Virus record (IMG/VR): IMGVR_UViG_3300024509_000014
Location: 8,377 to 72,376 of that record
Direction: 5' to 3' (one strand)
From: a virus
Length of the DNA: 64,000 bases
Positions within the stretch are counted from its first letter, which is position 1. Every line of letters begins with the position of its first letter. The position numbers were made by a program, and so were the translations under genes. Under the pieces are notes generated by a model. It was not told the DNA's origin, made no database searches, and worked only from the letters and a program-made list of their open reading frames with translations. Of this stretch, positions 22,441-48,832 are shown piece after piece.

Positions 22441-22482
22441 GGGTAGGGGTTGGTCTTTGTCTTTCAGGGGTGGGGGTTGTCA

Positions 22483-24408: not shown

Positions 24409-24691
24409 TGAAGAATCTGAAGAAGTTGGTCTTTCCAAGCGCATGGTGGCACACAATCTGGCTTTGTTGGACGCCCTTGCTGAAGCTTCTGAGGCCAAGA
24501 AACGCATGGCCGAGGAGATGGGCAATGTCATCAAGGCGATCCTGATCAAATTCGGGGGGGAGATCACGCTGGATGGCACATTCATCGCCGCTGCTGAATC
24601 GCCAACCTGCACATTGAATCACGAGATTCTGTCCAACGGCGAAGTCCTGCGGTTTTGGGTCGAGGAAGTCGAAGAGGGGGACGACGAATGA
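24401..24691 (+). CDS. Small acidic hypothetical protein
   Basis: Overlaps both neighbours; lies inside the split dnaE locus. Confidence 0.65.
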   Translation: MFDEESEEVGLSKRMVAHNLALLDALAEASEAKKRMAEEMGNVIKAILIKFGGEITLDGTFIAAAESPTCTLNHEILSNGEVLRFWVEEVEEGDDE

Positions 24692-25344
24692 CCACCAACA
24701 TCATCATTTGTTTTGACTTTGAGACGGGCGGTTTGGACATCAGAACCACCGAGCCAATCGAAATCGCTGCGGTCGCCATCAACCCCAGGACTCTGTCGGT
24801 AGTGCCGGATGGCACATTCTACAGCCTGTGCAAGCCGACCGATTTCTCCCTCCTGCAAGACCAGGCTCTGGCCGTCAACGGCAAGACGCGTGACCAGCTG
24901 AGGGCTGCGCCTGAGCAGGAAGCGGTCTGGCGTTCTTTCTGTTCTTTCATCAAGCGGTTCAATCCCAAGGGGAACAGCTTCACGACGGCGCCCATTGCCG
25001 CCGGGAAAAACATCCGCGCTTTTGACCTGCCGATTTTCAATCGTCTTTGCGCCAAGTACGGCTTTGCCGACAAGAACGGGGATCAAAACCTGTTCCATCG
25101 CCGGAAGGTCTATGACTTGGAGGATCTGCTGGAGTTCTGGTTTCATGACTCCGAAGAGCTTCCCGATCGCAAGATGGACACCTTGCGCGGATATTTTGGG
25201 ATGAGCCGGGACGGGGCGCATTCGGCCATGGTGGACACGAAACAGACGGCAGAATTGATCGTCCGCTTTTTGAAAGTGCATCGGTATTATGCCGCCAAAA
25301 TCCCGTTCCGTGGAGCTTGCGCCAAGAACCCGGTGATCATCTGA
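24688..25344 (+). CDS. DEDDh 3'-5' exonuclease (DnaQ/epsilon-like)
   Basis: FDFETGG, NIRAFD, HSAMVD. Confidence 0.88.
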   Translation: MTTNIIICFDFETGGLDIRTTEPIEIAAVAINPRTLSVVPDGTFYSLCKPTDFSLLQDQALAVNGKTRDQLRAAPEQEAVWRSFCSFIKRFNPKGNSFTTAPIAAGKNIRAFDLPIFNRLCAKYGFADKNGDQNLFHRRKVYDLEDLLEFWFHDSEELPDRKMDTLRGYFGMSRDGAHSAMVDTKQTAELIVRFLKVHRYYAAKIPFRGACAKNPVII

Positions 25345-26975
25345 TGGCCGAGTATCACATGTCCTGTGGTTGTTCCTGGCCGATAGTCGGGGATTCGCCA
25401 CGCCAAGGCGCTCTTCCCCTGCTTGATGTCGATGTGTCCAAGCTGCCGGATTGTCATCTGGCCTGGGACATCATGTCGATTGGCAATACCAAGGGTGTCT
25501 TCCAGCTGGAAAGCCGGCTGGGGGCAACCTGGGCCAAAAAGCTCAGGCCCAGGAATGACGAGCACCTTTCGGCTTTGGGCGCTTTGTTGCGCCCGGGCTG
25601 TTTGGCCGCCAAAGACGAGAACGGCATCAGCCTGACCGAACACTACTGCCGTCGCGTCAACAAAGAAGAGCCTGCTGACTCGTTCGACCCCGCCCTAGAC
25701 GAAATACTCGGGCCGACTGAGCAGATTTTGGTTTATCAAGAACAAGCCATGCAGATTGGAGCAAAGTTTGCTGGCTTCGATCTTAAAAATGTCGACAGGC
25801 TACGCAAGGCCATCGGCAAGAAGGATCAGAAGGAAATGGCCGAGGTCAAGCGGCTTTTCCTTGAGGGGGCAGAAAAGGTCAAGGTCGTTTCCATGGATGT
25901 GGCCGAGACCGTTTGGGGCTGGATCGAGAAGGCTGGACGGTACTCTTTCAACAAGTCCCACAGCATGAGCTACGGGCTGACTGGGTACGACACCGCCTAT
26001 CTCAAGTCCCACTTCCCGGTGCAGTTCTATACCTCGTGGCTGGCCTACGCCGAAGACAAGGTTGATCCGGATCAGGAAGTCATGGAGTTGGTCGAGGATG
26101 CCCGCAGGGCCGGGATCACCGTGTTTCCGCCCGATGTCCGCCACAAACAGATGATTTTCTGGACAGATGGCGTCGATATCTTTTTCGGGCTGTCAAACAT
26201 CAAGGGGTTGGGACAGTCCAATCTACACAAGCTGTTTGAGATTATGGAAAAAGCCGAGAAGGATTTGGGCAAGAAATCCACCGAATTCACTTGGGTCGAA
26301 TGGCTTGTGCATGTTGCCGCAGAAACACCTTCGGTGAATCACAAGCTGATCATGGCGGGCGCCCTGGATTGGGCGGGACGCAAGCGGCAACGAATGCTGG
26401 CCGAGATCGATGTTGTCGCCTCGCTCACCAAGAAGGAGCAGGCCTGGATTCTGAAGAACTGCAATGGAGACGAGCCGTTTGTCGATGTGCTTCGACGGTT
26501 GGCCAAACCGAAGAAGGAAGGCGGTGGTGTGGCCAATGTGAAACGCGGGTCTCTGGTGAATGGCCAGGCGACCCTTCTGGAGAATCCACCCACCCCGTTG
26601 AGCGACCATCCGGCTTGGATGGCTTGGGCAGAAGAGCAGGTCTTTGGGTTCGCCCTGACCTGTTCTCGCGTTGACGGTTGCGATCTGGGTGACGCAAACA
26701 CGACCTGCGGCGAATTCTTGGCTGGAAAGACTGGATTTCTTCTCCTTGGCGTTGAGGTGAGAGGGGTCAGGTCGTTTAAGACAAAGAAAGGGACCATGAT
26801 GGCTTTCCTTTCTCTATCGGATTCGTCCGGGATGCTGGACGATGTGGTGTGTTTCTCTGAGCCTTGGGAGGAGTACAAGCATCTCCTGTCTGAGGGGAAC
26901 ACGGTTTTGGTGCAGGGCGAACGAGACCCCAAGAAAGGTTCGTTGGTCGTGCGCAAGGTTTTTCAGATGTCATGA
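25344..26975 (+). CDS. dnaE: DNA polymerase III alpha, C-terminal half (fingers, HhH, OB)
   Basis: GVFQLES, LRPG, VYQEQAM, LRKAIGKK, YSFNKSHS, GLSNIKGLG, TKKGTMMAF. Confidence 0.93.
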   Translation: MAEYHMSCGCSWPIVGDSPRQGALPLLDVDVSKLPDCHLAWDIMSIGNTKGVFQLESRLGATWAKKLRPRNDEHLSALGALLRPGCLAAKDENGISLTEHYCRRVNKEEPADSFDPALDEILGPTEQILVYQEQAMQIGAKFAGFDLKNVDRLRKAIGKKDQKEMAEVKRLFLEGAEKVKVVSMDVAETVWGWIEKAGRYSFNKSHSMSYGLTGYDTAYLKSHFPVQFYTSWLAYAEDKVDPDQEVMELVEDARRAGITVFPPDVRHKQMIFWTDGVDIFFGLSNIKGLGQSNLHKLFEIMEKAEKDLGKKSTEFTWVEWLVHVAAETPSVNHKLIMAGALDWAGRKRQRMLAEIDVVASLTKKEQAWILKNCNGDEPFVDVLRRLAKPKKEGGGVANVKRGSLVNGQATLLENPPTPLSDHPAWMAWAEEQVFGFALTCSRVDGCDLGDANTTCGEFLAGKTGFLLLGVEVRGVRSFKTKKGTMMAFLSLSDSSGMLDDVVCFSEPWEEYKHLLSEGNTVLVQGERDPKKGSLVVRKVFQMS

Positions 26976-27415: not shown

Positions 27416-29017
27416 ATGGCACGCATCCTTCTGGTTGGTGAGGCGACTTGGTTGCAGACTGGCTATGCCACATACGCAAGCCAGATTGCCCACAAGCTTA
27501 AAGCAGCCGGTCATGAGATCGGGGAGTTGGCTTGTTACGGTGTTCCAAGTGATCCGAGGCGGGCGTCAAGCCCGTGGCCGGCTTTCTTCGTGACCACGAA
27601 CACGGACAACTATCCGCCTCTGGCCATCAACCAGTCCAATCCCGCGCTGGGGGCCACGATCTTTGAGGAAACCGTCCTGCGTTTCAAGCCGGATGTTGTT
27701 ATCTCATTGCGTGACCCCTGGCAGGATGCGTTCATTGCTTATTCGCCGCTGCGTTCTTACTATCGCTGGGTGTTCATGCACCCCGTCGACGGCGAACCTC
27801 AGGATGACGAATGGATTTCGGTATTGAATCAGGCCGATGCCGTACTGTGTTATTCGGAATACGGCCTGAATGTCCTGAAGCAGTATCCCGGCCTAAACCT
27901 GGCCGGGGTCGCTTCCCCCGGAGCTGAGCCGGATGTATTCTTCCCGCACTCTCAGCACGAATCCCGCGAGGCTCTGAACATCCCGCAGGATGCCCTGGTC
28001 GTGGGCACGGTGATGCGCAACCAGGGGCGCAAGCTGTACCCCGATCTTTTTGAAAGTTTCAAGAAGTTGCTGGACACGGCACCATCCCACATAGCCGACC
28101 GACTTTACCTGTACTGCCACACGGCTTGGCCCGATGTTGGCTGGGACATGCCCAAGTACCTGCTGCGACACGGTGTTGCCCACAGAACCCTGTTCACATT
28201 CGCCTGCAAGAAGTGCGATCGGGCCTCTGCCCTGCTCTGGCAGATGCCAGCCGGGTACTGTCCGTACTGCGCAAGTGGCGAATTAACCACCCCCGGCGTG
28301 GCTTCCGGCCTTCCTAGGTCGTTCATGCGGCCGGTGTATTCATCCATGGACGTATTCGTGCAATACTCGGTGTGCGAGGGCTTCGGAATGCCGCAGGTTG
28401 AAGCAGCCTGTTGTGGTGTCCCGGTGGTCTCGGTTGACTTCACCGCCATGTCTTCTGTGGCCTCGGCTATCGGGGCCGAAACCATCCCAGTCCAACGCGC
28501 TTTCCCCGAATTGGAAACCGGACGGATGATGGCTTTGCCGGACAACAATGCCTTGGTGTCCGCCCTGACCAACCTCTTCTCGTCGCCGCCCGCATTGCGT
28601 CGAGCGATTGGTCAAAAACATAGAGATATGGCTAGTGCTACATTCAGCTATGAAAAAGCAGCTAATGTGTGGCTAAATACAATATCAAGCTTGCAAAAAC
28701 CAACAAAAAGCTATCAAGATAATAAAAGAATATTGCCTAATTTATCTAAACCAGAAGAATATCTATCAAATAAAGAATGGGTTGACAAGGCTTTTGTTTC
28801 AGCCCTGGGAATCTCTTCTGCTCAGGCCGGATACCTAGCCCAAAGGATGCTGCGGGATCTTTCTCGTGGTTATTGTGATACCACTTTTGTCCCCTCTCAA
28901 TACACAAGTTTTGGCCCGGGTGGCAAGCTGGGAGCTTTCAACCGGGAACATGCTTGGGAACAACTGTGTGCCGAACGTCACAGGATTGAGTTTTGGGAGG
29001 AAATGCGGGCATCATGA
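27416..29017 (+). CDS. GT4-like (GT-B) glycosyltransferase with zinc-ribbon insertion
   Basis: TGYA, VMRNQGRK, EGFGMPQVEAACCGVPVV. Confidence 0.85.
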   Translation: MARILLVGEATWLQTGYATYASQIAHKLKAAGHEIGELACYGVPSDPRRASSPWPAFFVTTNTDNYPPLAINQSNPALGATIFEETVLRFKPDVVISLRDPWQDAFIAYSPLRSYYRWVFMHPVDGEPQDDEWISVLNQADAVLCYSEYGLNVLKQYPGLNLAGVASPGAEPDVFFPHSQHESREALNIPQDALVVGTVMRNQGRKLYPDLFESFKKLLDTAPSHIADRLYLYCHTAWPDVGWDMPKYLLRHGVAHRTLFTFACKKCDRASALLWQMPAGYCPYCASGELTTPGVASGLPRSFMRPVYSSMDVFVQYSVCEGFGMPQVEAACCGVPVVSVDFTAMSSVASAIGAETIPVQRAFPELETGRMMALPDNNALVSALTNLFSSPPALRRAIGQKHRDMASATFSYEKAANVWLNTISSLQKPTKSYQDNKRILPNLSKPEEYLSNKEWVDKAFVSALGISSAQAGYLAQRMLRDLSRGYCDTTFVPSQYTSFGPGGKLGAFNREHAWEQLCAERHRIEFWEEMRAS

Positions 29018-30144
29018 ACGACATCCTCTACATTGGCAATTTTCATGACGGAACGGGTTATGCCAGGGCCTGTTGCGAGACAGCCATTGCGTTAGAGGAG
29101 GCTGGAGCCAGAGTTATTTGTCGGCCAATCACCTTCAACGGTGCCTCCCACCCCTGCCATGAGAAAATCTACGGGCTGGAAGAACGCGCTATGCCCGCCA
29201 GGTTTGATGCGGTCATTCAGCACACCCTGCCGCCCATCATGAAGTTTGACCGCAGGCTCGGTCTGAATGTGGCCAATTTTTACTACGAGGCTAGCAGGTT
29301 CACCAGCGCAGGGTGGGATTTGCACCTGAACATGATGGATGTGGTTGTCACGACACCAGGAATCTCAACGAAAGCTTGCTCCAACAGTCGGGTGAACAAG
29401 CCGACCATCAGCCTGCCCCTACCCAGCGATGTCCATCGCTATCTGAAAAAGTATCCGGTTCCGGATTTCATTCGACAGTACGTCAACGAGAAGAAGTTTG
29501 TCTTCTACACGATCGGCGAGAATGTCCGACGCAAAAATTTGGGTGGGTTGATCAAGGCCTATTACAGCGAGTTTCTGCCGACCGAAAATGTCGTGCTCGT
29601 CATCAAGACAAACGGCGATCCGCGCCATGTCCAATCGATGATGCGCGAGATCGGACAGGGCATGAAACTGCCTTATCTTCCAGAAATAGTCGTGATCACG
29701 GAACGGTTGACAGAAGATCAGCTGATGGGTCTTCATGCTCACGGATCATGTTTTGTCCAGGCCTCTTGTGGTGAAGCCTGGTCTTATCCGGCCTTTGACG
29801 CAATGGCGATGGGCAGGACTCCGGTTGTGCCAGACACCGGAACCTATCGCTCCTATATCTCGGATGAGACCGGCTATCTCGTTCCCGTCTACGACGAGCC
29901 ATGCTCGGGCGGTCAGGACGAGTCAGCCGAGCTTTACCGTGGCGACGAACAATGGGAGGTTCCTTTTACCAAGGATCTGTCCCATGCGATGCGAAGGGCT
30001 TACAGGGAGGATGACCAGCGTCAAGCGAAAGCTTCGCTCGGTCTGGAAGTGGCGTACCAATTCATCCCCCTGAAGGTCGGCAAGACCTTCCTGGAGGCTC
30101 TTGACCATGCGACGCAAAAACAAGCTGTGGACCGATTTTCTTGA
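29014..30144 (+). CDS. GT4-like glycosyltransferase
   Basis: GTGYARA, RRKNLGGLIKAY, GEAWSYPAFDAMAMG. Confidence 0.85.
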   Translation: MNDILYIGNFHDGTGYARACCETAIALEEAGARVICRPITFNGASHPCHEKIYGLEERAMPARFDAVIQHTLPPIMKFDRRLGLNVANFYYEASRFTSAGWDLHLNMMDVVVTTPGISTKACSNSRVNKPTISLPLPSDVHRYLKKYPVPDFIRQYVNEKKFVFYTIGENVRRKNLGGLIKAYYSEFLPTENVVLVIKTNGDPRHVQSMMREIGQGMKLPYLPEIVVITERLTEDQLMGLHAHGSCFVQASCGEAWSYPAFDAMAMGRTPVVPDTGTYRSYISDETGYLVPVYDEPCSGGQDESAELYRGDEQWEVPFTKDLSHAMRRAYREDDQRQAKASLGLEVAYQFIPLKVGKTFLEALDHATQKQAVDRFS

Positions 30145-30850
30145 AGATGATAATGACCCAGAACTGATTCCGTGGCAACAAGTTAGGGACGCCGATGTTG
30201 AAAAACGGTTTGATGCTAAGAAGCCTGTTAAGAAGATCAAGGCCAGGACGCCCAACCAACAGAACTACATCAACAATATTGAGGCCTGCACTCTGACTAT
30301 CTGCACTGGCCCGGCTGGTTGCGGTAAAACCTACATCCCCTGCGGTCTCGCCGCCAACTGGCTCCACGAGAACAAGATCGAAAAGGTCATTCTGACCCGA
30401 CCCATCGTTGAGTGCGGTCAAAGGCTGGGCGCCCTGCCTGGCACTTTGGGTGAAAAGACCGACCCTTTCATGGCCCCCATGTTTGATGCCTTCGGGGATT
30501 TTCTCGACCCGGGATTCCTCAAGCACTGCCGGAACAAGGAGACCATTGAGGTGGTCCCCCTGGAAACGATGCGCGGTCGAACATTCCACAACTCGGTGAT
30601 CATTCTGGACGAGGCCCAGAATGTGACCCGTCGCCAGATGAAAATGTTTCTCACCCGTTTTGGTGAGAATTCCAAGGTCATCGTTTGCGGAGACGTTACC
30701 CAGACAGACTTGCCCCACTCTGAAGGCAATCCGCTCATCTGGGTGTGGGAAAAGTTAGGTCATCCTGACATCGCCAAGGTCACTCTGGGGCCAGAAGATG
30801 TTCAGCGCCATGGCTTAATTCGCCATATCCTTGAGCGTTTGGGAGACTGA
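30107..30850 (+). CDS. phoH: PhoH-family ATPase
   Basis: GPAGCGKT, LGALPG, MRGRTF, ILDEAQN, GDVTQTD, VQRH. Confidence 0.93.
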   Translation: MRRKNKLWTDFLEDDNDPELIPWQQVRDADVEKRFDAKKPVKKIKARTPNQQNYINNIEACTLTICTGPAGCGKTYIPCGLAANWLHENKIEKVILTRPIVECGQRLGALPGTLGEKTDPFMAPMFDAFGDFLDPGFLKHCRNKETIEVVPLETMRGRTFHNSVIILDEAQNVTRRQMKMFLTRFGENSKVIVCGDVTQTDLPHSEGNPLIWVWEKLGHPDIAKVTLGPEDVQRHGLIRHILERLGD

Positions 30851-30859
30851 CCCCTGTGC

Positions 30860-30920
30860 GGCATGGGTAAGATCGTTAGCGACGGCCATCCGGGCCGTTT
30901 CAACGGGTCTTATCCATGCC
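30860..30920 (+). promoter_or_regulatory. Long hairpin burying the start codon of gene 30916
   Basis: GGCATGGGTAAGATC pairs with GGTCTTATCCATGCC (two G-U pairs); inner GACGGCC/GGCCGTT stem. Confidence 0.65.
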
Positions 30921-31938
30921 AGACATTGCCAGCATCCTAAAATCTGCCGTCCGCAAGACTGACAGGATCAATGTCCTCACTTTTGTTACCCACGAGCGGT
31001 ACCAAAGTGCTTGGGGCGGGGTGGACGCCAATTTTTTCCTGTGGAATGATGAAAACGCCAAGCCGTGGATGCGCCAATATGCGCCCATGCCAGCCAACCA
31101 CATCCTGCTGCCCTTCCATCCGTCGACGCCAAATGTTCCTGTCGGCATAGACATAGACCTCGTGATCACGCACCATCTCAGCCAGTACGACCGGGCTTTG
31201 CAGGCTGCGACGCATTTGGGTGTCCCGTTGCTGCGCCTGGAACATTGTCTGCCCGACGAGACTTGGTCTCCTGAGCAAGTTCGCTTCGCCAAGGCCAAAT
31301 CGGGCGATGTGAATGTCTTCATCACCCAACACCAGCTGAAAGCCTGGGGTGGGTGCGAGGACGATTTCGTGATCTACAACGCCATCGACACGGATTTGTT
31401 CCGGCCGCGGGATGGTGGCAGCCGAGATCCGGTTTGCCTGAGCGTGGTCAACGACTGGATCAAGCGTGATTATGTCTGCGGCTTCAGTTTCTGGAAACTG
31501 GCCACGAAAGACCTTCCCGTCCGTGTGCTGGGCGACACGCCAGGCCTGTCCAAAGCAGCCGCCAACGTCGAAGAGTTGGCTGATGCCTACCGCAGTTCGT
31601 TGTTGTTTCTCTGTACTGCCACCAACAGTTCCCTGCCCACGACCGTCCTTGAGGCCATGGCCTCCGGTTGTTGTGTGGTGGCCTACCGTGCGACCGCTAT
31701 CGAGGAAGCCATTGAGCATGGCGTGAATGGTTTTCTCGTCGACAGTCCAGAGGAGATGAACGCCACCGTCAAAAGACTGCTGGCGAATCCGTCCTATTGC
31801 GAGATGATCGGCGCAGCAGCCAGGGAAAGGGCTGTTGGCCGTCACAACCTGGATGTTTTTGTGGAGAAGTGGAGCCAGGCCCTGCGTCTGGCCGTAGACG
31901 CCCCGTGGTGGAGGAAACAATGGTCAAGTTGCGCTTGA
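30916..31938 (+). CDS. GT4-like glycosyltransferase
   Basis: IYNAIDTDLF, PTTVLEAMASGCCVV, IEHGVNGFLV. Confidence 0.85.
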   Translation: MPDIASILKSAVRKTDRINVLTFVTHERYQSAWGGVDANFFLWNDENAKPWMRQYAPMPANHILLPFHPSTPNVPVGIDIDLVITHHLSQYDRALQAATHLGVPLLRLEHCLPDETWSPEQVRFAKAKSGDVNVFITQHQLKAWGGCEDDFVIYNAIDTDLFRPRDGGSRDPVCLSVVNDWIKRDYVCGFSFWKLATKDLPVRVLGDTPGLSKAAANVEELADAYRSSLLFLCTATNSSLPTTVLEAMASGCCVVAYRATAIEEAIEHGVNGFLVDSPEEMNATVKRLLANPSYCEMIGAAARERAVGRHNLDVFVEKWSQALRLAVDAPWWRKQWSSCA

Positions 31939-32369
31939 GTGTGGGCGACTCAAAGATGAGCCTGCCTGGATTTGTCCATATCGACCCGTTTAGCCAAGAG
32001 AATCCAGGCAATCCAGCCGATCTGTCCAGGCATGCCGAGGAAGGCGAGGCCCTTGAGATCGTCGCCGCTGATGTCTTGGATTTCTATCCCGGTGAATTCC
32101 GGCATCGCTTGCTGGGCCATTGGGTTTCCAGGCTCAGTCGTGGCGGCGTGATCCTTGTCGGCACCCGAGAAATCGTCGAGGTTTGTCGCCATGTCATGTT
32201 GGGCGAAACCGACAGCTTCAGCCAGCTGGTCTTTGGGAGCAGCGGTCAGCGTCGCCAGAGTGCTGGCACACTGCCCGAGTTGAAGTCGATGCTCTCGCTG
32301 ATGGGCACGACCCTTGTGCGTTCGTATGTAAAAGACTTCATGAGCTATGTGGAGGCAGTCCGTGATTAG
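31920..32369 (+). CDS. Class I SAM methyltransferase-like protein (degenerate)
   Basis: LRLSVGD...PGFVHID, DVLDF, W..RLSRGGV resemble small phage methyltransferases; GxG loop eroded. Confidence 0.55.
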   Translation: MVKLRLSVGDSKMSLPGFVHIDPFSQENPGNPADLSRHAEEGEALEIVAADVLDFYPGEFRHRLLGHWVSRLSRGGVILVGTREIVEVCRHVMLGETDSFSQLVFGSSGQRRQSAGTLPELKSMLSLMGTTLVRSYVKDFMSYVEAVRD

Positions 32370-33159
32370 TACATCGTGCCATAATTGCCGGTTCGCCATC
32401 AAGGATGTGGGTGGCAATCAGACCGGATGTTGGACCAGCATGCTCAAGCGTTTCCAGGAGCAGGGCAGGGTCGAACTGGAGAATGTTGCTGGCGCCGACT
32501 CGTACAGGACGATCGATTGCTTCTGCCCGATGTTCCGTCCGGCAGACTGGATGAGCGAACTGAATCACGACCAGGCGATCGCCGAAGCCCGCAAGGAGCG
32601 AACGCTGGCTGTCGCCGCAATTGTCTCGTGCGAGAAGGGCGAACTGTCTGATGTCGCCCGAACCGCCGAGATGCTGGAACAGCAGACCCTCAAGCCCACC
32701 GAGGCCGTTTTCGTCATCACCCCGCGCTCCGTTGTCAAACCAAAGAATGTCTTGTCAACCCTGCGCGACCTTGACCTGTCCTACCAGTATTCGTTGCGTT
32801 TTGTCATGGACGCCTCGTACACCGAGACGGACGCCCTACAGGAAGGGGCCGGCAACAACCTGAAGTCCGTGTTCATCCTGTTCGCCGAAGCGGGACAACA
32901 TCTGGAAAACTGCTACCTAGCCGATCTGGATCATCTGATCAACGAACAGAACCAGCGGGTTGTGCTAGTCGATCCTGGCAAGATTCACGGCATGCTCGTC
33001 CAGACCATGGCCTTCAACATGGTCGGAGGCTTCCACGAGGTGGTCTGGGAAGGAACCGAGGAAAAGATCGCCAGCGTTGCCGAGAAGCTCAAGCGCATCG
33101 CCAAAAGCCAGAACTCGCAGTATCTGATCCTTGACGGGGAGGTTCCCCATGTCGCTTGA
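32362..33159 (+). CDS. Hypothetical protein with Cys-rich N-terminus and possible degenerate GT-A domain
   Basis: CHNC...C...CFC; AFNMVGGF resembles a GT2 C-terminal motif. Confidence 0.55.
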   Translation: MISTSCHNCRFAIKDVGGNQTGCWTSMLKRFQEQGRVELENVAGADSYRTIDCFCPMFRPADWMSELNHDQAIAEARKERTLAVAAIVSCEKGELSDVARTAEMLEQQTLKPTEAVFVITPRSVVKPKNVLSTLRDLDLSYQYSLRFVMDASYTETDALQEGAGNNLKSVFILFAEAGQHLENCYLADLDHLINEQNQRVVLVDPGKIHGMLVQTMAFNMVGGFHEVVWEGTEEKIASVAEKLKRIAKSQNSQYLILDGEVPHVA

Positions 33160-33898
33160 CCGGGTGTCGGTTGTCATCGCCAACCACAACTACGGTCATT
33201 TTTTGGCAGAAGCACTTGACTCTGCCGCTTCCGAGAAGCCTGGCCGCATCATCGTTGTCGACGACGGGTCAACCGATGACTCCGTGAGCGTTGTCTTTCG
33301 CAAATTGTCCGATGCGACCGAGCAGGATCATGCTGGGGTGCCATCTCTGGTCGGCCATATTGATGGCGTGCAGGTTCGTTTGTTCTCGGCCCACGAATCC
33401 CGCGGCCCTGCCGCAGCCCGCAACTGGGCCATGCGCGTAGCCTGGGATCAGACGGACTACTTTGCCGTCCTAGACGCCGACGACAGATTCCTGAGCGGAA
33501 GACTCGGTGCCTGCGTGCAACTACTGGAAAAATACGGAGAATCAGCCGGTGCGATTTATACGGACTATTACCATGTGCGCAATGGTGTTCATTTTCGTCA
33601 CTGCAAAAAATCTTTCGTAAAACGCGAACTGGCTTTTGACAACATGGTGCATTCAGCCTGCGTGATAAGGAAGTCTGCTTTGAACGAAACCGGACTGTAT
33701 GACGAATCGATGCCTCCAGCGGAAGATTATGAATTGTGGATGAGGATAGCAAGGAACCGAGTCATCCTTCATTTGCCGGAGGCGATGATGGATGTGAACG
33801 AGGGCGATTACCAGCTTTCGCGCCGAACCAAGCCTGACTTCTACGCCCAACAACTCCGAACCATCAGGGAGCGACATTGTCAGAGCTTGTTGTCGTAA
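33149..33898 (+). CDS. GT2 glycosyltransferase
   Basis: VSVVIANHN, IIVVDDGSTD, GPAAARN, LDADD, EDYELW. Confidence 0.92.
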   Translation: MSLDRVSVVIANHNYGHFLAEALDSAASEKPGRIIVVDDGSTDDSVSVVFRKLSDATEQDHAGVPSLVGHIDGVQVRLFSAHESRGPAAARNWAMRVAWDQTDYFAVLDADDRFLSGRLGACVQLLEKYGESAGAIYTDYYHVRNGVHFRHCKKSFVKRELAFDNMVHSACVIRKSALNETGLYDESMPPAEDYELWMRIARNRVILHLPEAMMDVNEGDYQLSRRTKPDFYAQQLRTIRERHCQSLLS

Positions 33899-34581
33899 TA
33901 TCGGCCGCTGGAGCCGGTCGTCGCATGAAAGCCAGGGGGCCTAAGGCTCTCATCGATATTGGCGGTGGCGAGACCGTTCTCAGCAGACAGCTTGCGCTGG
34001 CGAGAAGAGCCATGCCGAATGCCGAATTGATCGTGGTGGTCGGCTACCAAAAGGAAAGGGTGATCAAGACCCTGCCCAAAGATGTTCGCTGGGTAGAAAA
34101 TGCGGATCACGAGCAGACCAATGTAGCCCGCTCATTGTTGATGGGAATTGCTGAGTGTCCGACGCGCAGAGCCGTGCTCATGTGCGGCGACCTCGTTTTT
34201 GGCCCTGAGTTTTTATCCAGCGTACCCAACGAGGGTTCTGTCGCCGTCATCGACGAAAACCACAATCACCGTTCCTCCGAAGTCGGCTGCAATATCGACC
34301 AGGGACGAATCTGTCATTTTAGTTACGGCGTCTGGCCCAAGTGGGGCCAGGCTGTGGCGCTTGGGGACAAAGAACTTGATCTTTACCGCAGGATAGCGTC
34401 GAGGGATCAATGCGCACGATGGTTTGCTTACGAAGTGTTGAACGGCGTCATCGACGCTGGTGGCGTGATTTCGCCAGCCTATCCCAAAAAATCCTATCTC
34501 GTTGAGATCGACAGCACCCAGGACATCGACAGGGCCAAAAGTATGGTCAGCAAACTGCGTCGGAAAGGAGTGGTCGCATGA
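33877..34581 (+). CDS. Sugar-phosphate/phosphocholine nucleotidyltransferase (LicC-like)
   Basis: AAGAGRRM...PKAL, VVGY, GDL, EIDSTQD. Confidence 0.82.
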   Translation: MSELVVVISAAGAGRRMKARGPKALIDIGGGETVLSRQLALARRAMPNAELIVVVGYQKERVIKTLPKDVRWVENADHEQTNVARSLLMGIAECPTRRAVLMCGDLVFGPEFLSSVPNEGSVAVIDENHNHRSSEVGCNIDQGRICHFSYGVWPKWGQAVALGDKELDLYRRIASRDQCARWFAYEVLNGVIDAGGVISPAYPKKSYLVEIDSTQDIDRAKSMVSKLRRKGVVA

Positions 34582-35372
34582 ATGTCTTGATAGTCAACGA
34601 CGACAACGGTGTTGGCAGCGGTGCTTTGGCCCACGGTTTTGCCATGCTGAAACATGATGTGGCGATGTGGTCTCCGGAAAAGATGCCAGCCTATCAGGCG
34701 TTCGGAAGACAAAAGCCAGACTTGTTCATCGGCCCGACATCCTCTTACACACCAGCTGTTCAGCGTTCAGCAGGCAATGCACAAATGGCCCTGTGGCAGG
34801 ATGACACCACTTTTTTCGACAAGGTTCCGCCGAATGTCTTTCTGTTCGCCGCCGACGAGGGGAAGGGCGACCTGCCCCACATCCCCTGGCCGTATCTGCC
34901 ACTCGCCGAAACTCCTTACCGGGATGAGATGGCGACCGACATTCTGTTCCTGGACGAGTACAGGCCCGGGTTCGACGCTTTCTTCATGCCGCTTTTTGAA
35001 AAACAGGGTGTCGTTGCCAGAATCCACAGCGACAAACCCTGGCCGGTGCCCTATTACGCTGGCAGCCTCAACCAGCAGGAGAGGATTGCCGCCATCGCAT
35101 CGACCGTGATTTGTCCGATGTATGCCGACGAGGCGGCCGACATCCGCAAGATGTACGAGATCGTGCGGGCCGGGGCGGTGCCGATGGTTGTCGGGGACGA
35201 GAAGCTATTGCCCTACGGCGGTAAGCCGGACGGCTACATCGAGCTAATGCTTGAGATCATCCACGAAAGTGGCTCCAAGGAGAGAATCAACGGCTATCTT
35301 GCCGATCTGTTCTCGGCCAACAATCCAGTTGATGCAGCGCAAACCCTCCTGAGGACCATGATCACATGCTGA
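34578..35372 (+). CDS. Hypothetical protein, possible divergent GT-B/CgeB-like fold
   Basis: MNVLIV...GFA...HDV, KPDLFI; cluster context. Confidence 0.55.
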   Translation: MNVLIVNDDNGVGSGALAHGFAMLKHDVAMWSPEKMPAYQAFGRQKPDLFIGPTSSYTPAVQRSAGNAQMALWQDDTTFFDKVPPNVFLFAADEGKGDLPHIPWPYLPLAETPYRDEMATDILFLDEYRPGFDAFFMPLFEKQGVVARIHSDKPWPVPYYAGSLNQQERIAAIASTVICPMYADEAADIRKMYEIVRAGAVPMVVGDEKLLPYGGKPDGYIELMLEIIHESGSKERINGYLADLFSANNPVDAAQTLLRTMITC

Positions 35373-35992
35373 GTCTCATCCTTGACAAGCCACACAATCT
35401 GGATGTGTTGTGCCGATGCCTGTCCATGGTTGCGGCCTATCGACCCTCGCCTGACACGGAAGTCATCGTGCCGTGGGACGGCAAACCCAGAGAGGTGCTG
35501 CCAATACTCAAGGCGTTCAGCTCGCGTTTCTTCTGGAAAATCGGATTGTGTCCGGAAGGGACAGCCGGCTATTTGGCCGTTGCCCACCTCGCCAAGTCCG
35601 AACATCCTGTCTTCATGAGTCATCGCCTGCTGATGACCGGCGAGGCTTTTTCAGCCCTTGAGTCGGCCACATCCGGCAGGGCGTGCGTCTACAAGACAGA
35701 TGGCATGCTGCTGGAATATGACCCGTACAGCTACTGGTTCCCGGAAGGTTACCGCCAAAACTGCCTGAAGATGCCGCATCAGATCCAGGAGGTTCAGGTT
35801 GACCAGCTTCCTTACTGCGTGGTCGGTAAGGCAGAATCGCTGGGTGGCGTGGCTGACCTTCCTTTTGTCGACGCTCAGGTTTTTCTGATGGACGGACCAC
35901 CTGTGTCGCTTGGCCAGGCTCTTCCTGAAGACATCCCCATCCTGTCCAGCACCGACACCCCTTGTTTTCCTCCCGATGAAGATCGAGTTTGA
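35366..35992 (+). CDS. Hypothetical protein, possible degenerate GT-A fold
   Basis: RCL.....EVIV N-terminal pattern; overlaps both neighbours. Confidence 0.5.
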   Translation: MLSLILDKPHNLDVLCRCLSMVAAYRPSPDTEVIVPWDGKPREVLPILKAFSSRFFWKIGLCPEGTAGYLAVAHLAKSEHPVFMSHRLLMTGEAFSALESATSGRACVYKTDGMLLEYDPYSYWFPEGYRQNCLKMPHQIQEVQVDQLPYCVVGKAESLGGVADLPFVDAQVFLMDGPPVSLGQALPEDIPILSSTDTPCFPPDEDRV

Positions 35993-36665
35993 CCATGTCG
36001 AGGGCTGGGGCAAGATCACCCAGCACGATCTCATTCACGCCCCCTGCTGGGTTGTCCGGGAGTGGGAATCTCACGACCAGATGCTGGAGGCGGGATTCCT
36101 GCCGTGGGCTGGCAAGTGGTTCCCGGCCCGCTCCGTCCGTTACGATCTGGAGCGCATGACCTTCGGGCGCACGGTCGAGAAAAGCTTTCGCAAGGCCATC
36201 AAGACCGTCAGCTGGCACGAGGAAAAGCCCAACGAGGATGACTACGGGCGTATCGTGTCTGGCTATCTGGCCCACCACCAGTTTGACAGCGGGCATGTGT
36301 TCGCCGAATTGGCAGAAAACCGGGAGTTTTCCTGGCTGACTTACAAGGCAGACGGCAGGGCGGTCGCCTTCCTGGCCTATCTGAGTTATCCCCGCTCCTT
36401 TGTCGGTCTCCAGTTCGCCTGGGACTACGCCGACCCCAAGCTCTCCCTTGGCTCGGTTAGTACATATGTCGAAGCCACGCTTGCCCGGTCAAACGGCTGC
36501 CGCTGGTATTACGTCATGGGAGGTTACGAGAATGCCAGTCTCTACAAGTCAAACCACGAAGGCTTTCAGTTTTGGACCGGCAAAGAATGGTCGGAAGACA
36601 AAGAACTCTATATCCAACTCTGTCAGCGAGACTCGAGGATCACATACGAAAATGTTTATTCTTGA
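35976..36665 (+). CDS. Ate1/Bpt-like aminoacyl-tRNA-dependent transferase
   Basis: MLEAGF...RSVR; WDYADPKLSLGSVSTYVE..LA...GCRWYY.GGY....YK matches the ATE_C pattern. Confidence 0.72.
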   Translation: MKIEFDHVEGWGKITQHDLIHAPCWVVREWESHDQMLEAGFLPWAGKWFPARSVRYDLERMTFGRTVEKSFRKAIKTVSWHEEKPNEDDYGRIVSGYLAHHQFDSGHVFAELAENREFSWLTYKADGRAVAFLAYLSYPRSFVGLQFAWDYADPKLSLGSVSTYVEATLARSNGCRWYYVMGGYENASLYKSNHEGFQFWTGKEWSEDKELYIQLCQRDSRITYENVYS

Positions 36666-36858
36666 GCCAAAACAGTCTCTGGAAGTGGAAACCCCAAAGG
36701 GTAAAGGGCGCGTCTGGCTTGTCACAGACTACGGGCCGGAGACAGAAAAGTTGTTTGCGGTCATCCTTTACGAGTCCGGAGAAATCTGGGAATTCACCAA
36801 CAAGGATGTGAAGGCCACAAAAAACCTAACCATGGGGCGCGGGAGCTGGTCAAAATGA
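36652..36858 (+). CDS. Small hypothetical protein
   Basis: VETPKGKG..W...DYG.E phage-type motif; overlaps both neighbours. Confidence 0.65.
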   Translation: MFILEPKQSLEVETPKGKGRVWLVTDYGPETEKLFAVILYESGEIWEFTNKDVKATKNLTMGRGSWSK

Positions 36859-37589
36859 GAATCGCATTTTCGCCCTATGTGTTGACCTTGGTGGGCACCG
36901 ATCAATGCGGTGTCGTCAACGGTGAGATTCACACCATCAAGGTGGCTCTCCGATCCGGCGTCTGGGCGGTTCGACACAAGGAACGGGTTCAATGTTTCCA
37001 GGACTTCCCGGACGCGCATCTCAGCCAGGATTTGTCCTGCAACCTCTCGACAAAAATCTTGCAGGATGACGGGTGGTATCCCGGCAAGGTGGACATATCC
37101 GAAAGCATCGATGAAATCTGTGCGCGGGCTGGCGGGTTGGTTTCTCTGGCCAAGGACAGCATCGGTGTGAACGGCCCGTTTGTCTTGCCCTTTGGCGAAG
37201 GGCTGGAGAAAAACGGCATTCTGCTGCGCGTGGACGGCAACGCAAACGAGTGGCAAAGACCATATGATCCCAGACACGCCACCAGCCTGACGATCATGGC
37301 AGGCATGCTGGTCAAGAACATGGCTGCGGGCGACTGGGAAAAGGCCGGGGATGTGCTGGAGCAATCCTGGAAACTCATCCGCGAGGAGGCTCCGGCAGAG
37401 ATCATCCGCGCTTACGCCGACGCCAGAATGCATGGTGCCTGGGGTTGCGTCTGGTGTGGCGACAATACGCTGTTTTGTCTTGCCTCCCCAGAATGGCACG
37501 CGTCGATTTCAAGCATGGTCGGCGTGGAGAAGCTGCCTTTCCAGATCAGCTATCAAGGGGCAGGCCTGAGGGCTGCGCTGAAGCCATGA
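36855..37589 (+). CDS. GHMP kinase-like (HddA heptose-7-phosphate kinase-like) protein, degenerate
   Basis: N-terminal P..LTLVGTD; C-terminal GDWEKAGDVLEQSW...AY..AR.HGAWG...PFQISYQG; GSGLGSS and GAGGGG loops missing. Confidence 0.6.
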   Translation: MRIAFSPYVLTLVGTDQCGVVNGEIHTIKVALRSGVWAVRHKERVQCFQDFPDAHLSQDLSCNLSTKILQDDGWYPGKVDISESIDEICARAGGLVSLAKDSIGVNGPFVLPFGEGLEKNGILLRVDGNANEWQRPYDPRHATSLTIMAGMLVKNMAAGDWEKAGDVLEQSWKLIREEAPAEIIRAYADARMHGAWGCVWCGDNTLFCLASPEWHASISSMVGVEKLPFQISYQGAGLRAALKP

Positions 37590-38038
37590 AAGTCCAATTC
37601 CTTGTCCCGACATTGGCTTCGTCCCACCAAGCCCTGGCTCTCGTCCATTGTGGCAACGAACTCGTGCGCAAGGGCCATGAAGTCCATGTCTTTGTGGAAG
37701 ACAAGGGGTCGCCGCCTTCCAGACCCCATTTTCCAGTCTTTGACGCCGCCTACGCCTACACACAACCGGGACCACTCATTGTCACGACACTTTCAAGCTT
37801 GGCTTTGGCCGTGAGTTCGCCAATCAAGCGGGAACTCTGGTTTTATGCCTGGGACATGGAATGGCTCAATGGCGAGTCGTTTGCCTGGCGAGACTTGCAT
37901 CCCATGTACACAGCAACCCCCCTAGTCGCAAGATCAAGCCACCACAGGCGCATTCTTGAAAACACCTGGGGAAAAACCGTGAACCATATCGTCGAAGATT
38001 TCAGCGCAGATCAGATTGAGAGGCTGCTATGTCCATGA
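37586..38038 (+). CDS. Hypothetical protein resembling a GT-B N-terminal domain
   Basis: MKVQFLV...NELVRKGHEVHVF. Confidence 0.55.
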   Translation: MKVQFLVPTLASSHQALALVHCGNELVRKGHEVHVFVEDKGSPPSRPHFPVFDAAYAYTQPGPLIVTTLSSLALAVSSPIKRELWFYAWDMEWLNGESFAWRDLHPMYTATPLVARSSHHRRILENTWGKTVNHIVEDFSADQIERLLCP

Positions 38039-38811
38039 CCTACGAGTATCTCGTGGAAGAATACGTCAACAAGCAACGGTCAACCCACGAGATTGCCGAG
38101 GAGCTTGGGACTTACCCCAACCGGGTTCGTCGGGCACTGAACAAGTTCGGCATCCCCGTCCGCAGCCGCTCGGAAGCCCAGTTGGTCGCCCTGGAGCAGG
38201 GTCGCCAGGAACACCCGACCAAGGGCAAGAAACTGTCTCCTGAGCGCAAGGCCCAGATTGGCGAGAGGATGGCCGAGCAGTGGGGGTCGATGTCGGAGGA
38301 GGAACGGAAGCGCCGCTCGGAAATCTCCAAAAAGCAATGGGAGACCATGGACGAAGGGCGTCGGGAATCCTTGCAGAAAAAAGCCCTGGACGCTGTGCGT
38401 GTCGCCGCTGACACCGGTAGCCGTTTGGAAAAGTACCTGATCCGCGGTCTGACCCAGGCCAGGTATCCGGTGGATTTTCATGTCCAGCTGGATCGCCAGC
38501 ATATCGACATGGTTGTTAGCCGTAAAGTGGGTTCCTTCAAGGGGATAGCGATCGAAGTCAACGGTCCTTCCCACTACAAACCGATCTGGGGGGATGATTA
38601 TTATGAAAAAAGAGCAGCCTCTGATGCGAAGAAGGTAGGGATGCTCGTCGGAAGTAATTTCCTAGTGATCATTATCAAAGACACTAAGGGAAGTCCTTCT
38701 GAAATTCGTATGAAGCACACTTTACAAAAGTTGTTGAGCATCATAGAATTGGCGAAGACCGACCCCGGGGTGGGGTCATATCATGAGATTGAGGTGGCGG
38801 TCGATGGCTAA
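38029..38811 (+). CDS. Putative homing endonuclease (HTH, NUMOD3-like and Vsr/DUF559-like nuclease domains)
   Basis: STHEIAEELG, HPTKGKKLSPERKAQI, SRLE, ID...IAIEVNGPSHY. Confidence 0.7.
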   Translation: MSMTYEYLVEEYVNKQRSTHEIAEELGTYPNRVRRALNKFGIPVRSRSEAQLVALEQGRQEHPTKGKKLSPERKAQIGERMAEQWGSMSEEERKRRSEISKKQWETMDEGRRESLQKKALDAVRVAADTGSRLEKYLIRGLTQARYPVDFHVQLDRQHIDMVVSRKVGSFKGIAIEVNGPSHYKPIWGDDYYEKRAASDAKKVGMLVGSNFLVIIIKDTKGSPSEIRMKHTLQKLLSIIELAKTDPGVGSYHEIEVAVDG

Positions 38812-40023: not shown

Positions 40024-40046
40024 GGAACCTTGGCGGGATTCCCTTG

Positions 40047-40084
40047 AAGGGGGCGGGGGGTGTGTTGCCCCCCGCTCTTTTTTT
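40047..40084 (+). terminator. Intrinsic terminator at the convergence of the two transcription blocks
   Basis: GGGCGGGGGG-TGTGTTG-CCCCCCGCTC followed by T7. Confidence 0.8.
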
Positions 40085-40268: not shown

Positions 40269-40501
40269 GGTTGAATCCTCGTTCGTTCATCAGTCACTTC
40301 ACCTTTGATCGGCCCACCGGCTAGGGCGCCACGCAAGTTACGCATCAGGCCAGCAACCAGAGGGCCAATCTCGGGTTGATATCCGCCCCACTCACAGAAG
40401 GGCAGTCTTTCTTCGAGCGTCGACAGGAAAGCGTCAGCAGCCGCCCATCCCGCCATTTCCACGGCGTCTCGAATGTCCTTGGGGAAGTCTTCCAGTCGCA
40501 T
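40265..40501 (-). CDS. Small hypothetical protein
   Basis: TGATG coupling to the GT2 stop; starts MRLEDFPK. Confidence 0.6.
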   Translation of the reverse strand: MRLEDFPKDIRDAVEMAGWAAADAFLSTLEERLPFCEWGGYQPEIGPLVAGLMRNLRGALAGGPIKGEVTDERTRIQP

Positions 40502-41538
40502 CAGACTTCCTCGTAGTCGTTGCAGTTTTGACAGCAGCGAATCCCATCGCCGTAGTCCCTGAACGGTCGGCATTTCTCGTGAAGTTCGCACTTGTACACA
40601 AACTTGAGCGGGCAGTTGCAGTCCCCGGTGTCGATCGGAGTGGTGCTCCGATGGAAACAGGGGAGGGTCCGCCGAACTGTTTTGATGGTGCGAAAGCGTT
40701 CAGGAAAAACACCTTGGTTTGGGTCAAGAGCTTCGGCTTCCGCAAGCACATTGTTGAAGTTGGCCTCGGGCACTTTGGGACGAAAATGTTCAACCACATC
40801 CTCGTAGGGCAGGCCGAGTTCACGGCGACCAACGACATAGTTGAAGATTCTGTCTTCCAAAAACAGGCGATAGGGAACACCCTTGGGTCGGCCGAACCGG
40901 TGCAGCCAAGTCATCCAGGGGACACACATCGCCTCGCCGCCGAACTTGCGGACCTTGGCATGTATATACCCCTCCTCACCCCCGAAGCCTCTGAATAGGG
41001 TGGAGAAGCCTGGCCACTCTTCCTTGCACATCATGAACTGGCCGAGGCCCTGCATGGGGATCGGGAACGGCTCACCGAGCTTCACTCTTTCGTCGGTCGC
41101 CCAAGTGCCATACATGGAGTCGCGCCAGACTGGGTCGAAGTGCGTGGCCATGTTGATGTGGTCGTCGTACAACAACGGGCCTTGATAGAGGTTCTTCCTC
41201 CCGGCCTTGCCTGAACGGATGAACTCCTTGACCTTGGACACAACCCCTTGCGTGAGCAAGACATGGCTATCCACACACATCACCCACTCGCCCTGTGCCT
41301 CTTCAAAGACCAGTTGGCGCGGCAGGGAGGTGCCAGTAGCGTGGCCCCTGTGCAGGTAGCGGGCCTTGGCCCATTCGGCGGCACTCTTGGTGTGGGGACA
41401 GCCATTGGGCAGATTGTCCACCACCAGCAACTCGACATCGTTCAGATCGTGATAGGCCCGCAACGCTTGCAGGGTGAAGTACACCCCATCGTAGTCGTCG
41501 TAGGTCGCCATGCCGATAGTCAGAAGTGGTTCCGCCAT
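40501..41538 (-). CDS. GT2-like glycosyltransferase with Cys-rich C-terminal extension
   Basis: LTIGMATY, LLVVDN, MCVDSH, FRGFGGEEGY, WLHRFGRP; seven Cys in the last ~45 aa. Confidence 0.82.
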   Translation of the reverse strand: MAEPLLTIGMATYDDYDGVYFTLQALRAYHDLNDVELLVVDNLPNGCPHTKSAAEWAKARYLHRGHATGTSLPRQLVFEEAQGEWVMCVDSHVLLTQGVVSKVKEFIRSGKAGRKNLYQGPLLYDDHINMATHFDPVWRDSMYGTWATDERVKLGEPFPIPMQGLGQFMMCKEEWPGFSTLFRGFGGEEGYIHAKVRKFGGEAMCVPWMTWLHRFGRPKGVPYRLFLEDRIFNYVVGRRELGLPYEDVVEHFRPKVPEANFNNVLAEAEALDPNQGVFPERFRTIKTVRRTLPCFHRSTTPIDTGDCNCPLKFVYKCELHEKCRPFRDYGDGIRCCQNCNDYEEV

Positions 41539-48221: not shown

Positions 48222-48832
48222 TAGATGTCCCCTATGTAACCATGCGTGATCAAATCAACAGAATTGGTATCCACGCCTGTGCCTGCCGTGATCATGTCCA
48301 GCGACCCTGTCGATCCCACGGGACCAACCAAATACAATACGCAGCCAGCACTGGCCTCCTGGGCATATCCGGTGATAGTGAGCGGCAACGTGGAAAAGGT
48401 TTCGGGCGTGCGCCAAACCACGAGATTCAGCCCGGTTCCGAAGACCGGAGCTTCCAGAATCAGCGGCAATGCGTTCTCCACCAACTCGGTGGCGCTGTTG
48501 ACTGTCAGCAAAGGCAACGAACTGGAAAGGTTTTTGTTCGCCCCCTCTACAAACAGGTTCATGTTCTGTTGGATATCAGATTTATTACACAATATATATA
48601 AATTTAGCCCTTTGCCATAAGTTTTACCACTGATAATCAGGGGTAAGGTGTTGGCAACGCCAGAAAACACGCCGAGGGTGTGGAGGGGAAGAGAATCCCC
48701 ACCCGAAGGTATTTCGGCAACCTTGAGGAACAGGTTGAGCGGTTCCCAGGAGAGAGACTCGCCCCCGAACCCGAGGACTAATCCCCCGGGTGTGGCCAGT
48801 ATGTCCCCCAGCCTGCCCGTGAAGACACTCAT
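48221..48832 (-). CDS. Putative tail protein with internal L(P/N)L repeats
   Basis: Recurring LNL/LPL-x-x-x-G units about every 14 aa; TAATG coupling to the tape measure gene. Confidence 0.65.
   Translation of the reverse strand: MSVFTGRLGDILATPGGLVLGFGGESLSWEPLNLFLKVAEIPSGGDSLPLHTLGVFSGVANTLPLIISGKTYGKGLNLYILCNKSDIQQNMNLFVEGANKNLSSSLPLLTVNSATELVENALPLILEAPVFGTGLNLVVWRTPETFSTLPLTITGYAQEASAGCVLYLVGPVGSTGSLDMITAGTGVDTNSVDLITHGYIGDI

Follow-up and report, generated by a model that had tools for sequence, protein, structure and literature searches.

From the analysis of a 64,000-nucleotide stretch of viral DNA (positions 8,377 to 72,376 of IMG/VR virus record IMGVR_UViG_3300024509_000014; hereafter the window), we identified a gene pair, or cassette, encoding a 229-amino-acid transferase of the Ate1/Bpt type and, directly downstream, an acidic protein of 68 amino acids. 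Ate1 and Bpt transfer Arg or Leu from tRNA onto N-terminal Asp or Glu in N-degron pathways. With a probability of about 0.42, we tentatively read the phage enzyme as a tRNA-dependent aminoacyl transferase acting on protein, for which the small protein would be the prime candidate acceptor. The features of the gene pair are as follows:

35976..36665, plus strand: Ate1/Bpt-like (ATE_C) transferase gene, 229 amino acids (open reading frame (ORF) and translation, Pfam, family profile)
36147..36221, plus strand: Lys/Arg-rich segment, residues 58-82, candidate binder of the tRNA acceptor stem (charge, order along the chain)
36294..36548, plus strand: GNAT/ATE_C core, residues 107-191, with W149, the S-L-G loop, E166, Y178 and Y190-K191 (Pfam, profile alignment, conservation)
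36561..36593, plus strand: C-terminal G-F-x-x-W-T-G-x-x-W-S motif, residues 196-206 (conservation)
36652..36858, plus strand: gene for the 68-amino-acid acidic protein, of no known family (junction sequence, conservation downstream of the transferase)

The transferase frame runs from an ATG at 35976 through 229 codons to a TGA at 36663-36665, and shares a 17-nucleotide overlap with the upstream gene (35366-35992). Translation could also begin further upstream, at a TTG at 35910; the ATG start, opening with M-K-I, is common to 25 of 26 aligned homologues. A word-indexed search at E<=1e-3 returned 27 homologues of 143-246 amino acids with E-values from 1e-123 to 1e-29, and an exhaustive search of 1.84 billion proteins matched 142 cluster representatives (50% identity) at E<=1e-3, 80 at E<=1e-10 and 6 at E<=1e-30. 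Given these homologues and cluster representatives, the ORF did not arise by chance and is, judged by sequence comparison, a real gene.

Based on profile comparisons, a proposal made earlier from the letters alone (the sequence-only reading), namely that this gene encodes a phage relative of Ate1 and Bpt, was upheld. Pfam ATE_C matched all 26 aligned relatives (E<=0.01, best 1.4e-8), compared with 8 of 26 for the general GNAT family Acetyltransf_6 (PF13480), and PF04377 is listed in precomputed annotations for 20 of the 27 homologues. Against 177,635 distinct PDB sequences, the family profile matched Ate1 chains only (E 6e-6), as did the profile of a second, distant subfamily (E 7e-8); neither profile retrieved FemX, L-PGS or L/F-transferase chains at E<=1. 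The nearest clusters in the Atlas were viral ATE_C proteins, followed by Bacteroidota "GNAT" clusters with ATE_C. For the window protein itself, the Leu_Phe_trans domain (Aat, PF03588) was not among Pfam matches at E<=0.1, and the NCBIfam arginyltransferase models (named PRK01305) gave just E 0.04-0.06. The C-terminal motif that the sequence-only reading had described is present residue by residue (W149-D-Y-A-D-P-K-L-S-L-G159, E166, L169-A170, G174, W177-Y-Y, G182-G-Y184 and Y190-K191), although its spacing had been given slightly wrongly: six residues separate G159 from E166, two separate Y-Y from G-G-Y, and five separate G-G-Y from Y-K. The reported lack of an N-terminal Cys cluster is likewise confirmed, with a single Cys (C24) in residues 1-100, C175 as the sole invariant Cys of the 26-homologue alignment, and no conserved Cys in the N-terminal half of the family alignment. 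The transferase is best read as a Cys-less, phage-specific member of the Ate1/Bpt (ATE_C) superfamily. A cellular ATE_C protein of 253 amino acids (67.9 bits; L163:1216-1977), from a metagenome-assembled genome (MAG) of Chitinophagaceae, likewise has no detectable ATE_N domain, and Cys-less Bpt-like proteins may form a wider uncharacterised group in Bacteroidota.

We then read the sequence alignments against the mutagenesis of K. lactis Ate1 (klAte1) as described in PMC9351520. In the profile alignment, family positions 117-189 correspond to Ate1 233-307, the chain numbering being offset by 4 from that of PMC9351520, and conservation was counted over 119 superfamily sequences of at least 195 amino acids, with all rows kept, including six with unrelated N-termini. 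The catalytic Y303-K304 pair of klAte1 aligns with phage Y190-K191, and W260, which contacts the tRNA end, aligns with W149; the pocket residues S255, S273, E277 and Y289 correspond to G144, S162, E166 and Y178, respectively. Among the 119 sequences, K191 is kept in 118, Y190 in 104 (with Trp in 12), E166 in 99 and W149 in 84, and the C-terminal motif is comparably conserved (G202 in 119, W205 in 118, W200 in 115 and G196 in 112). Two Arg residues are near-universal (R55, 116/119; R52, 112/119), and are candidate residues of a pocket binding acidic N-termini, formed in klAte1 by Arg80, Tyr25 and Tyr87.

The acidity of E277 is required for arginyl transfer, and the Leu-transferase Bpt carries Gln at this position, as described in PMC9351520; the Chitinophagaceae protein has Thr there (hhalign probability 30%). 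Because the phage family keeps an acidic pocket residue (E166) where Bpt has Gln and the cellular protein Thr, this single aligned position suggests a basic donor, most likely Arg and possibly Lys. Phage tRNAs, sought as a further clue to the donor, numbered zero in the source record, and a complete relative (G003) encodes a single tRNA-Met. In Ate1, a basic helix binds the tRNA acceptor stem (as described in PMC9351520 and PMC10115844). Residues 58-82 of the phage family carry a net charge of +2 to +7 in all 26 members, and the order of this segment along the chain matches Ate1 residues ~108-146, with an alignment that is not significant (-2.9 bits); the segment is a candidate counterpart of the tRNA-binding helix.

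The sole neighbour conserved everywhere is the small gene, which the sequence-only reading had overlooked. Its ATG sits 14 nucleotides inside the end of the transferase gene. Pairing was counted in the 80 viral loci kept from a first IMG/VR scan plus a single MAG locus, and the small gene lies directly 3' of the transferase in every one (80/80 viral, 81/81 overall), its protein starting between 10 nucleotides before and 26 nucleotides after the end of the transferase match in the viral loci. Small-protein homologues are 63-72 amino acids long with 16 invariant alignment columns, and their isoelectric points fall between 4.9 and 6.8 in 34/34 members. The small protein evolves more slowly than its neighbour (mean pairwise distance 0.29 vs 0.45 for the transferase), and its distance matrix is correlated with that of the transferase (54 unique pairs, r 0.83). 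No usable match to it was found in Pfam (with the single sequence, or with 34 members at E<=5), PHROGs, PADLOC, a PDB profile search or the Atlas, and defence and anti-defence models gave no match. A likeness of its T-P-K-G-x-G segment to EF-P/KOW or cold-shock loops was considered and rejected, since some members carry Arg, Asn or Gln in place of the Lys and the protein itself is acidic.

Together, these findings suggest a mechanism in which the phage enzyme would take an aminoacyl group from host aminoacyl-tRNA and move it to an amine on a protein, through Ate1-type catalysis with K191 and Y190 positioned at the tRNA 3' end, and with a preference for a basic donor (Arg, or possibly Lys) set by E166. 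In this branch of the family, the transferase would work with the acidic protein encoded directly downstream, to which it is probably translationally coupled and with which it may be in physical contact. The small protein may thus be a dedicated acceptor, for which invariant E5, E/D11 or K51 are the candidate sites; less likely, it could serve as a targeting or regulatory partner.

Survey of further genomes indicated a large and, as observed, essentially phage-only transferase family. A pattern scan of IMG/VR returned at least 598 stretches, at least 546 of them encoding a transferase relative; a second scan, made with the distant subfamily, again returned at least 598 stretches, of which at least 529 encode a relative. 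Among 185,579 species genomes (one genome per species), we found one locus, on a 117,852-bp MAG contig amid phage-like small genes. Across 50,697 GenBank phage records, tblastn with four family members found no transferase, while a polymerase control matched 1,379 records; because none of the four queries found one, no deposited phage in this collection carries the enzyme. Nor did we find, in the accessible parts of the full-text literature searched, any description of a phage-encoded Ate1/Bpt-like enzyme or of its pairing with a small gene.

Several observations weigh against a protein aminoacyl transferase with the small protein as acceptor. Regarding the enzyme, a search against the ATE_C profile, which the sequence-only reading had proposed as a check, gave a divided answer, for the relatives all match but the window protein itself scores 19.4 bits, below the cut-off of 25 (Pfam matches spanning residues 107-186 and 119-180). 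Its top Pfam match is instead Acetyltransf_6 at residues 107-186 (27.9 bits, cut-off 22), as would be expected were it an ordinary acyl-CoA-dependent GNAT merely resembling ATE_C, or an inactive remnant. We regard such an origin as very improbable, given that ATE_C outnumbers Acetyltransf_6 among the relatives, that the Ate1-type S-L-G loop, Tyr-Lys pair and Trp are conserved, and that no Acetyltransf_1-type match appears at E<=0.1 for the window transferase, while a remnant would not be expected to be so strongly conserved across more than 140 sequence clusters. ATE_N was not found in the window protein (E<=0.1), in the 26 relatives (E<=0.01) or in the whole record (E<=10), and the Ate1 pocket for acidic N-termini (Arg80) is therefore not mappable. 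Regarding the acceptor, 0-3 extra residues precede the conserved I-Y-E of the small protein, and this variation disfavours its intact N-terminus as the site of transfer. No fusion with the transferase occurs among 17 longer proteins containing the small domain, and no longer form of the transferase was found either, although this is weak evidence.

The two genes also occur apart. Searching with the small protein gave 388 stretches, 344 of which encode a relative. A reverse test took the best 80 small-protein loci and sought the transferase with three hidden Markov models (HMMs) at E<=1. A transferase lies directly upstream in 59, and none was detectable in 21, one of which has too little upstream DNA, so that the small gene is without an adjoining transferase in 20 of 79 informative loci. 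One of these small-only loci keeps the downstream genes of a transferase-bearing class. Conversely, no small-protein homologue was found in any of 80 loci of the distant transferase subfamily (E<=10). Since each occurs alone, neither protein needs the other in general, and it may be that the position upstream of the small gene just varies; the association is strict in one direction only, this branch of the transferase never occurring without the small gene in the loci examined. As a separate observation, the next gene in 12 of the 80 distant-subfamily loci (L095-L101, L117, L119, L120, L122 and L138) encodes a protein of ~98 amino acids, which starts M-P-I-Y-E-Y in 11 and M-P-L-Y-S-F in L138, and recalls the M-x-I-Y-E-P of the partner, perhaps by chance.

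Upon closer inspection, six of the loci (L172, L174 and L176-L179) were found to encode a NodU/CmcH carbamoyltransferase directly upstream of the small gene, the two genes overlapping by ATGA in L174. This enzyme matches NovN (E 1.2e-15) and also GdmN and TobZ, and is adjoined in 5 of the 6 loci, those with upstream DNA, by a dCMP/CMP hydroxymethylase homologue (MilA, 2.4e-21; T4 gp42, 6.5e-19). In L174:28-3231, for example, the order is a kinase-like ORF, the dCMP hydroxymethylase homologue, the carbamoyltransferase and the small protein. Such an arrangement of hydroxymethylase and carbamoyltransferase has been shown to make 5-carbamoyloxymethylcytosine in DNA, as described in PMC8670742. This link bears on the partner protein and not on the transferase, and that published system may include the small protein as a companion so far overlooked. 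A doubtful extension would have the 68-amino-acid protein act as a tag-like dedicated acceptor, modified by interchangeable upstream group-transfer enzymes that would be Ate1-like in most phages and of other kinds in some.

To compare residues, we used 31 unique transferase-linked and 14 unlinked small proteins from the reverse search. Position 11 is Glu in 31/31 linked sequences, whereas the unlinked ones carry Glu in 6, Gln in 4, Asp in 3 and Lys in 1; a few linked small proteins of the first set have Asp there. P6 is kept in 30/31 linked vs 8/14 unlinked and K51 in 30/31 vs 11/14, while E5 and E30 never vary in either group. The four Gln-11 sequences form one lineage and are not independent, a further point against the proposal, and the contrast at position 11 is for that reason a lead and not a test.

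An alternative that we consider improbable places the enzyme in a rewired N-degron pathway, in which Bpt- or Ate1-like action on host or phage N-termini would add a residue that routes proteins, directly or later, to ClpS-ClpAP, with the small protein being accessory or unrelated. The nearest characterised relatives do act in this manner, as described in PMC9351520. Redirection of ClpS/ClpAP, which the sequence-only reading had raised, is weakly supported: among 28 viral records that bear the cassette, 3 (G014, G015 and G021) encode a ClpS homologue scoring above the Pfam cut-off, ~10-14 kb away from the cassette, and the cassette-bearing MAG contig encodes a ClpS homologue too. The homologues located in cassette-bearing genomes are:

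G014:C1:100469-100657: ClpS homologue
G015:C1:101562-101759: ClpS homologue
G021:C1:109833-110021: ClpS homologue
G001:C153:4446-4634: ClpS homologue

Three further records hold sub-threshold ClpS matches inside ORFs of 357-358 amino acids. ClpS was found in none of 9 small-only records and none of 8 distant-subfamily records, and one phage ClpS as tblastn query matched just 3 of the 50,697 GenBank phage records, a count whose method differs from that of the HMM counts. However, the numbers are small and the difference between 3/28 and 0/17 is not significant, the three positive records may be one lineage, and no ClpS was found in five records of the window's lineage, namely the source record and four relatives, of which two are 97-100% complete. 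An L/F-transferase was likewise absent from the 5 records searched, the ATE_N domain with its pocket for acidic N-termini is undetectable, and this reading would not account for why the pairing with the small gene is strict.

In a further alternative, to which we give the same credence as to the N-degron pathway, a glycan, nucleotide sugar or modified DNA base would be aminoacylated in a FemX-like manner, with the small protein assisting, as a common accessory, enzymes that modify nucleic acids or glycans. The sequence-only reading had argued for a glycan, lipid or base from the gene neighbours, and the window does place the pair amid six glycosyltransferase-type genes (one sub-threshold) and a nucleoside triphosphate (NTP) transferase. 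The adjoining features are:

27416..35992, plus strand: co-directional block of three GT1/GT4-type glycosyltransferases, PhoH, GT2, an NTP transferase and unknowns (Pfam, NCBIfam, PHROGs)
40046..40082, plus strand: terminator-like hairpin of 17 pairs and then a T run (consensus scan, pattern match only)

That argument is weakened by the comparison of loci, in which ORFs were called crudely and clustered with blastp, excluding ORFs that overlap the cassette (antisense ORFs would otherwise link all loci). The 80 loci fall into 8 neighbourhood classes (33, 24, 12, 6, 2, 1, 1 and 1) with few flanking families in common. The pair is flanked in one class by an exonuclease gene on one side and terminase, portal and head genes on the other, and in another it adjoins tail-fibre-like genes; glycosyltransferase and NTP-transferase neighbours are limited to the class of the window, at 6 of 80 loci (L001-L005 and L018). 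The glycosyltransferase block is lineage-specific and is given here as context only. A base acceptor would fit the six loci in which the small gene adjoins a carbamoyltransferase, five of them with a hydroxymethylase homologue alongside in the arrangement described above, and a QueE-like gene, identified by eye from the sequence, near another small-only locus. Conversely, no thymidylate-synthase-family hydroxymethylase was found in the source record or its four relatives, and by tblastn none of the 80 transferase loci has a hydroxymethylase homologue within 10 kb. Tet/JBP gave no match in the source-lineage records, though the control matched nowhere either, and a C5-methylase was present in G003 only among those searched. 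Moreover, the published carbamoyltransferase modified DNA oligonucleotides in vitro, with no such partner mentioned in the portions of PMC8670742 consulted, and the closest sequence relatives of the phage enzyme are protein transferases, not FemX. A glycan or base acceptor is neither excluded nor favoured.

Around the locus, five glycosyltransferase genes, the NTP transferase and PhoH were annotated at window positions 27416-34581 (+), 37445-38038 (+) and 40501-41538 (-), the ORF at 37445-38038 (+) being a sixth glycosyltransferase-type frame with a sub-threshold GT4 match only (E 0.024). Complete relatives gave no hydroxymethylase or Tet gene, and these genes may act on the virion, the host envelope or DNA. 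The same co-directional block includes a 260-amino-acid protein (38029-38811, +) with weak matches to HNH-endonuclease PHROGs (E 7e-10), and the hairpin at 40046..40082, a pattern match only, closes the plus-strand block that holds the gene pair. The source virus record is 72,376 bp long with a CheckV completeness of 49%, and encodes a DnaB-like helicase, a DnaE-type DNA polymerase, a tail tape-measure protein and a ribonucleotide reductase. The records that bear relatives measure 145-149 kb, and one has terminal repeats. The DnaE-type polymerase is split over two ORFs, with an RNase_T/DnaQ-like exonuclease gene in between (22450-24408, 24655-25344 and 25317-26975, all +), and its halves align to positions 41-615 and 634-1074 of one PHROG family. 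On the minus strand, a single ORF of 4,232 amino acids (48832-61533) has a PhageMin_Tail domain near its N-terminus (E 1e-23); it encodes a tape-measure protein of great length, implying an unusually long tail. Elsewhere, the cassette region occurs twice on one contig in two cases, L007 with L016 (221,321 bp) and L190 with L195 (206,326 bp). The regions of L007 and L016 share 74-83% DNA identity over ~14 kb, and these doubled regions reflect either a jumbo phage with a genuine large duplication or two related genomes joined together.

To our knowledge, few enzyme families use aminoacyl-tRNA outside the ribosome. Should the transferase aminoacylate a defined small protein, it would serve as a compact model (229 amino acids) of Ate1-type catalysis that needs no cofactor, would add a new kind of protein modification to those of phages, and might yield a protein-tagging tool. 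A tag-like acceptor with its enzyme would amount to phage-specific tRNA-dependent protein aminoacylation, probably arginylation, for which no viral counterpart has been described; were the enzyme instead to feed ClpS, it would represent a phage takeover of the bacterial N-degron pathway.

Among known systems, Ate1 (PDB 7WG1, 7TIF and 8E3S) is the sole solved relative by sequence. Both proteins have the GNAT/ATE_C core, the S-L-G loop, and the equivalent residues W260/W149, E277/E166 and Y303-K304/Y190-K191, and a basic segment, a candidate counterpart only, comes in like order along the chain. They differ in that the phage protein comprises 229 amino acids vs ~500 in Ate1, is without a detectable ATE_N domain, Cys/zinc or Fe-S cluster or variable domain, has G144 in place of S255, and possesses a small partner gene. 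Bpt, the Leu-tRNA-protein transferase for N-terminal Asp/Glu, belongs to the same Pfam ATE_C family and is similar in size to the phage protein. According to PMC9351520, however, the donor pocket of Bpt is hydrophobic or neutral and contains Gln, at a position where the phage family has an invariant Glu. FemX is likened to Ate1 in the Ate1 literature, both being aminoacyl-tRNA transferases in which a Lys is paired with an aromatic residue; the window protein lies above the PF13480 cut-off of the FemX/FemAB and Acetyltransf_6 group, but just 8 of 26 relatives match. Finally, the 5-hydroxymethylcytosine carbamoyltransferase cluster described in PMC8670742 occupies the slot of the transferase upstream of the small gene in six loci, with a fold and chemistry unrelated to those of the transferase, in that carbamoyl phosphate and ATP provide the donor and the hydroxyl of 5-hydroxymethylcytosine in DNA serves as acceptor.

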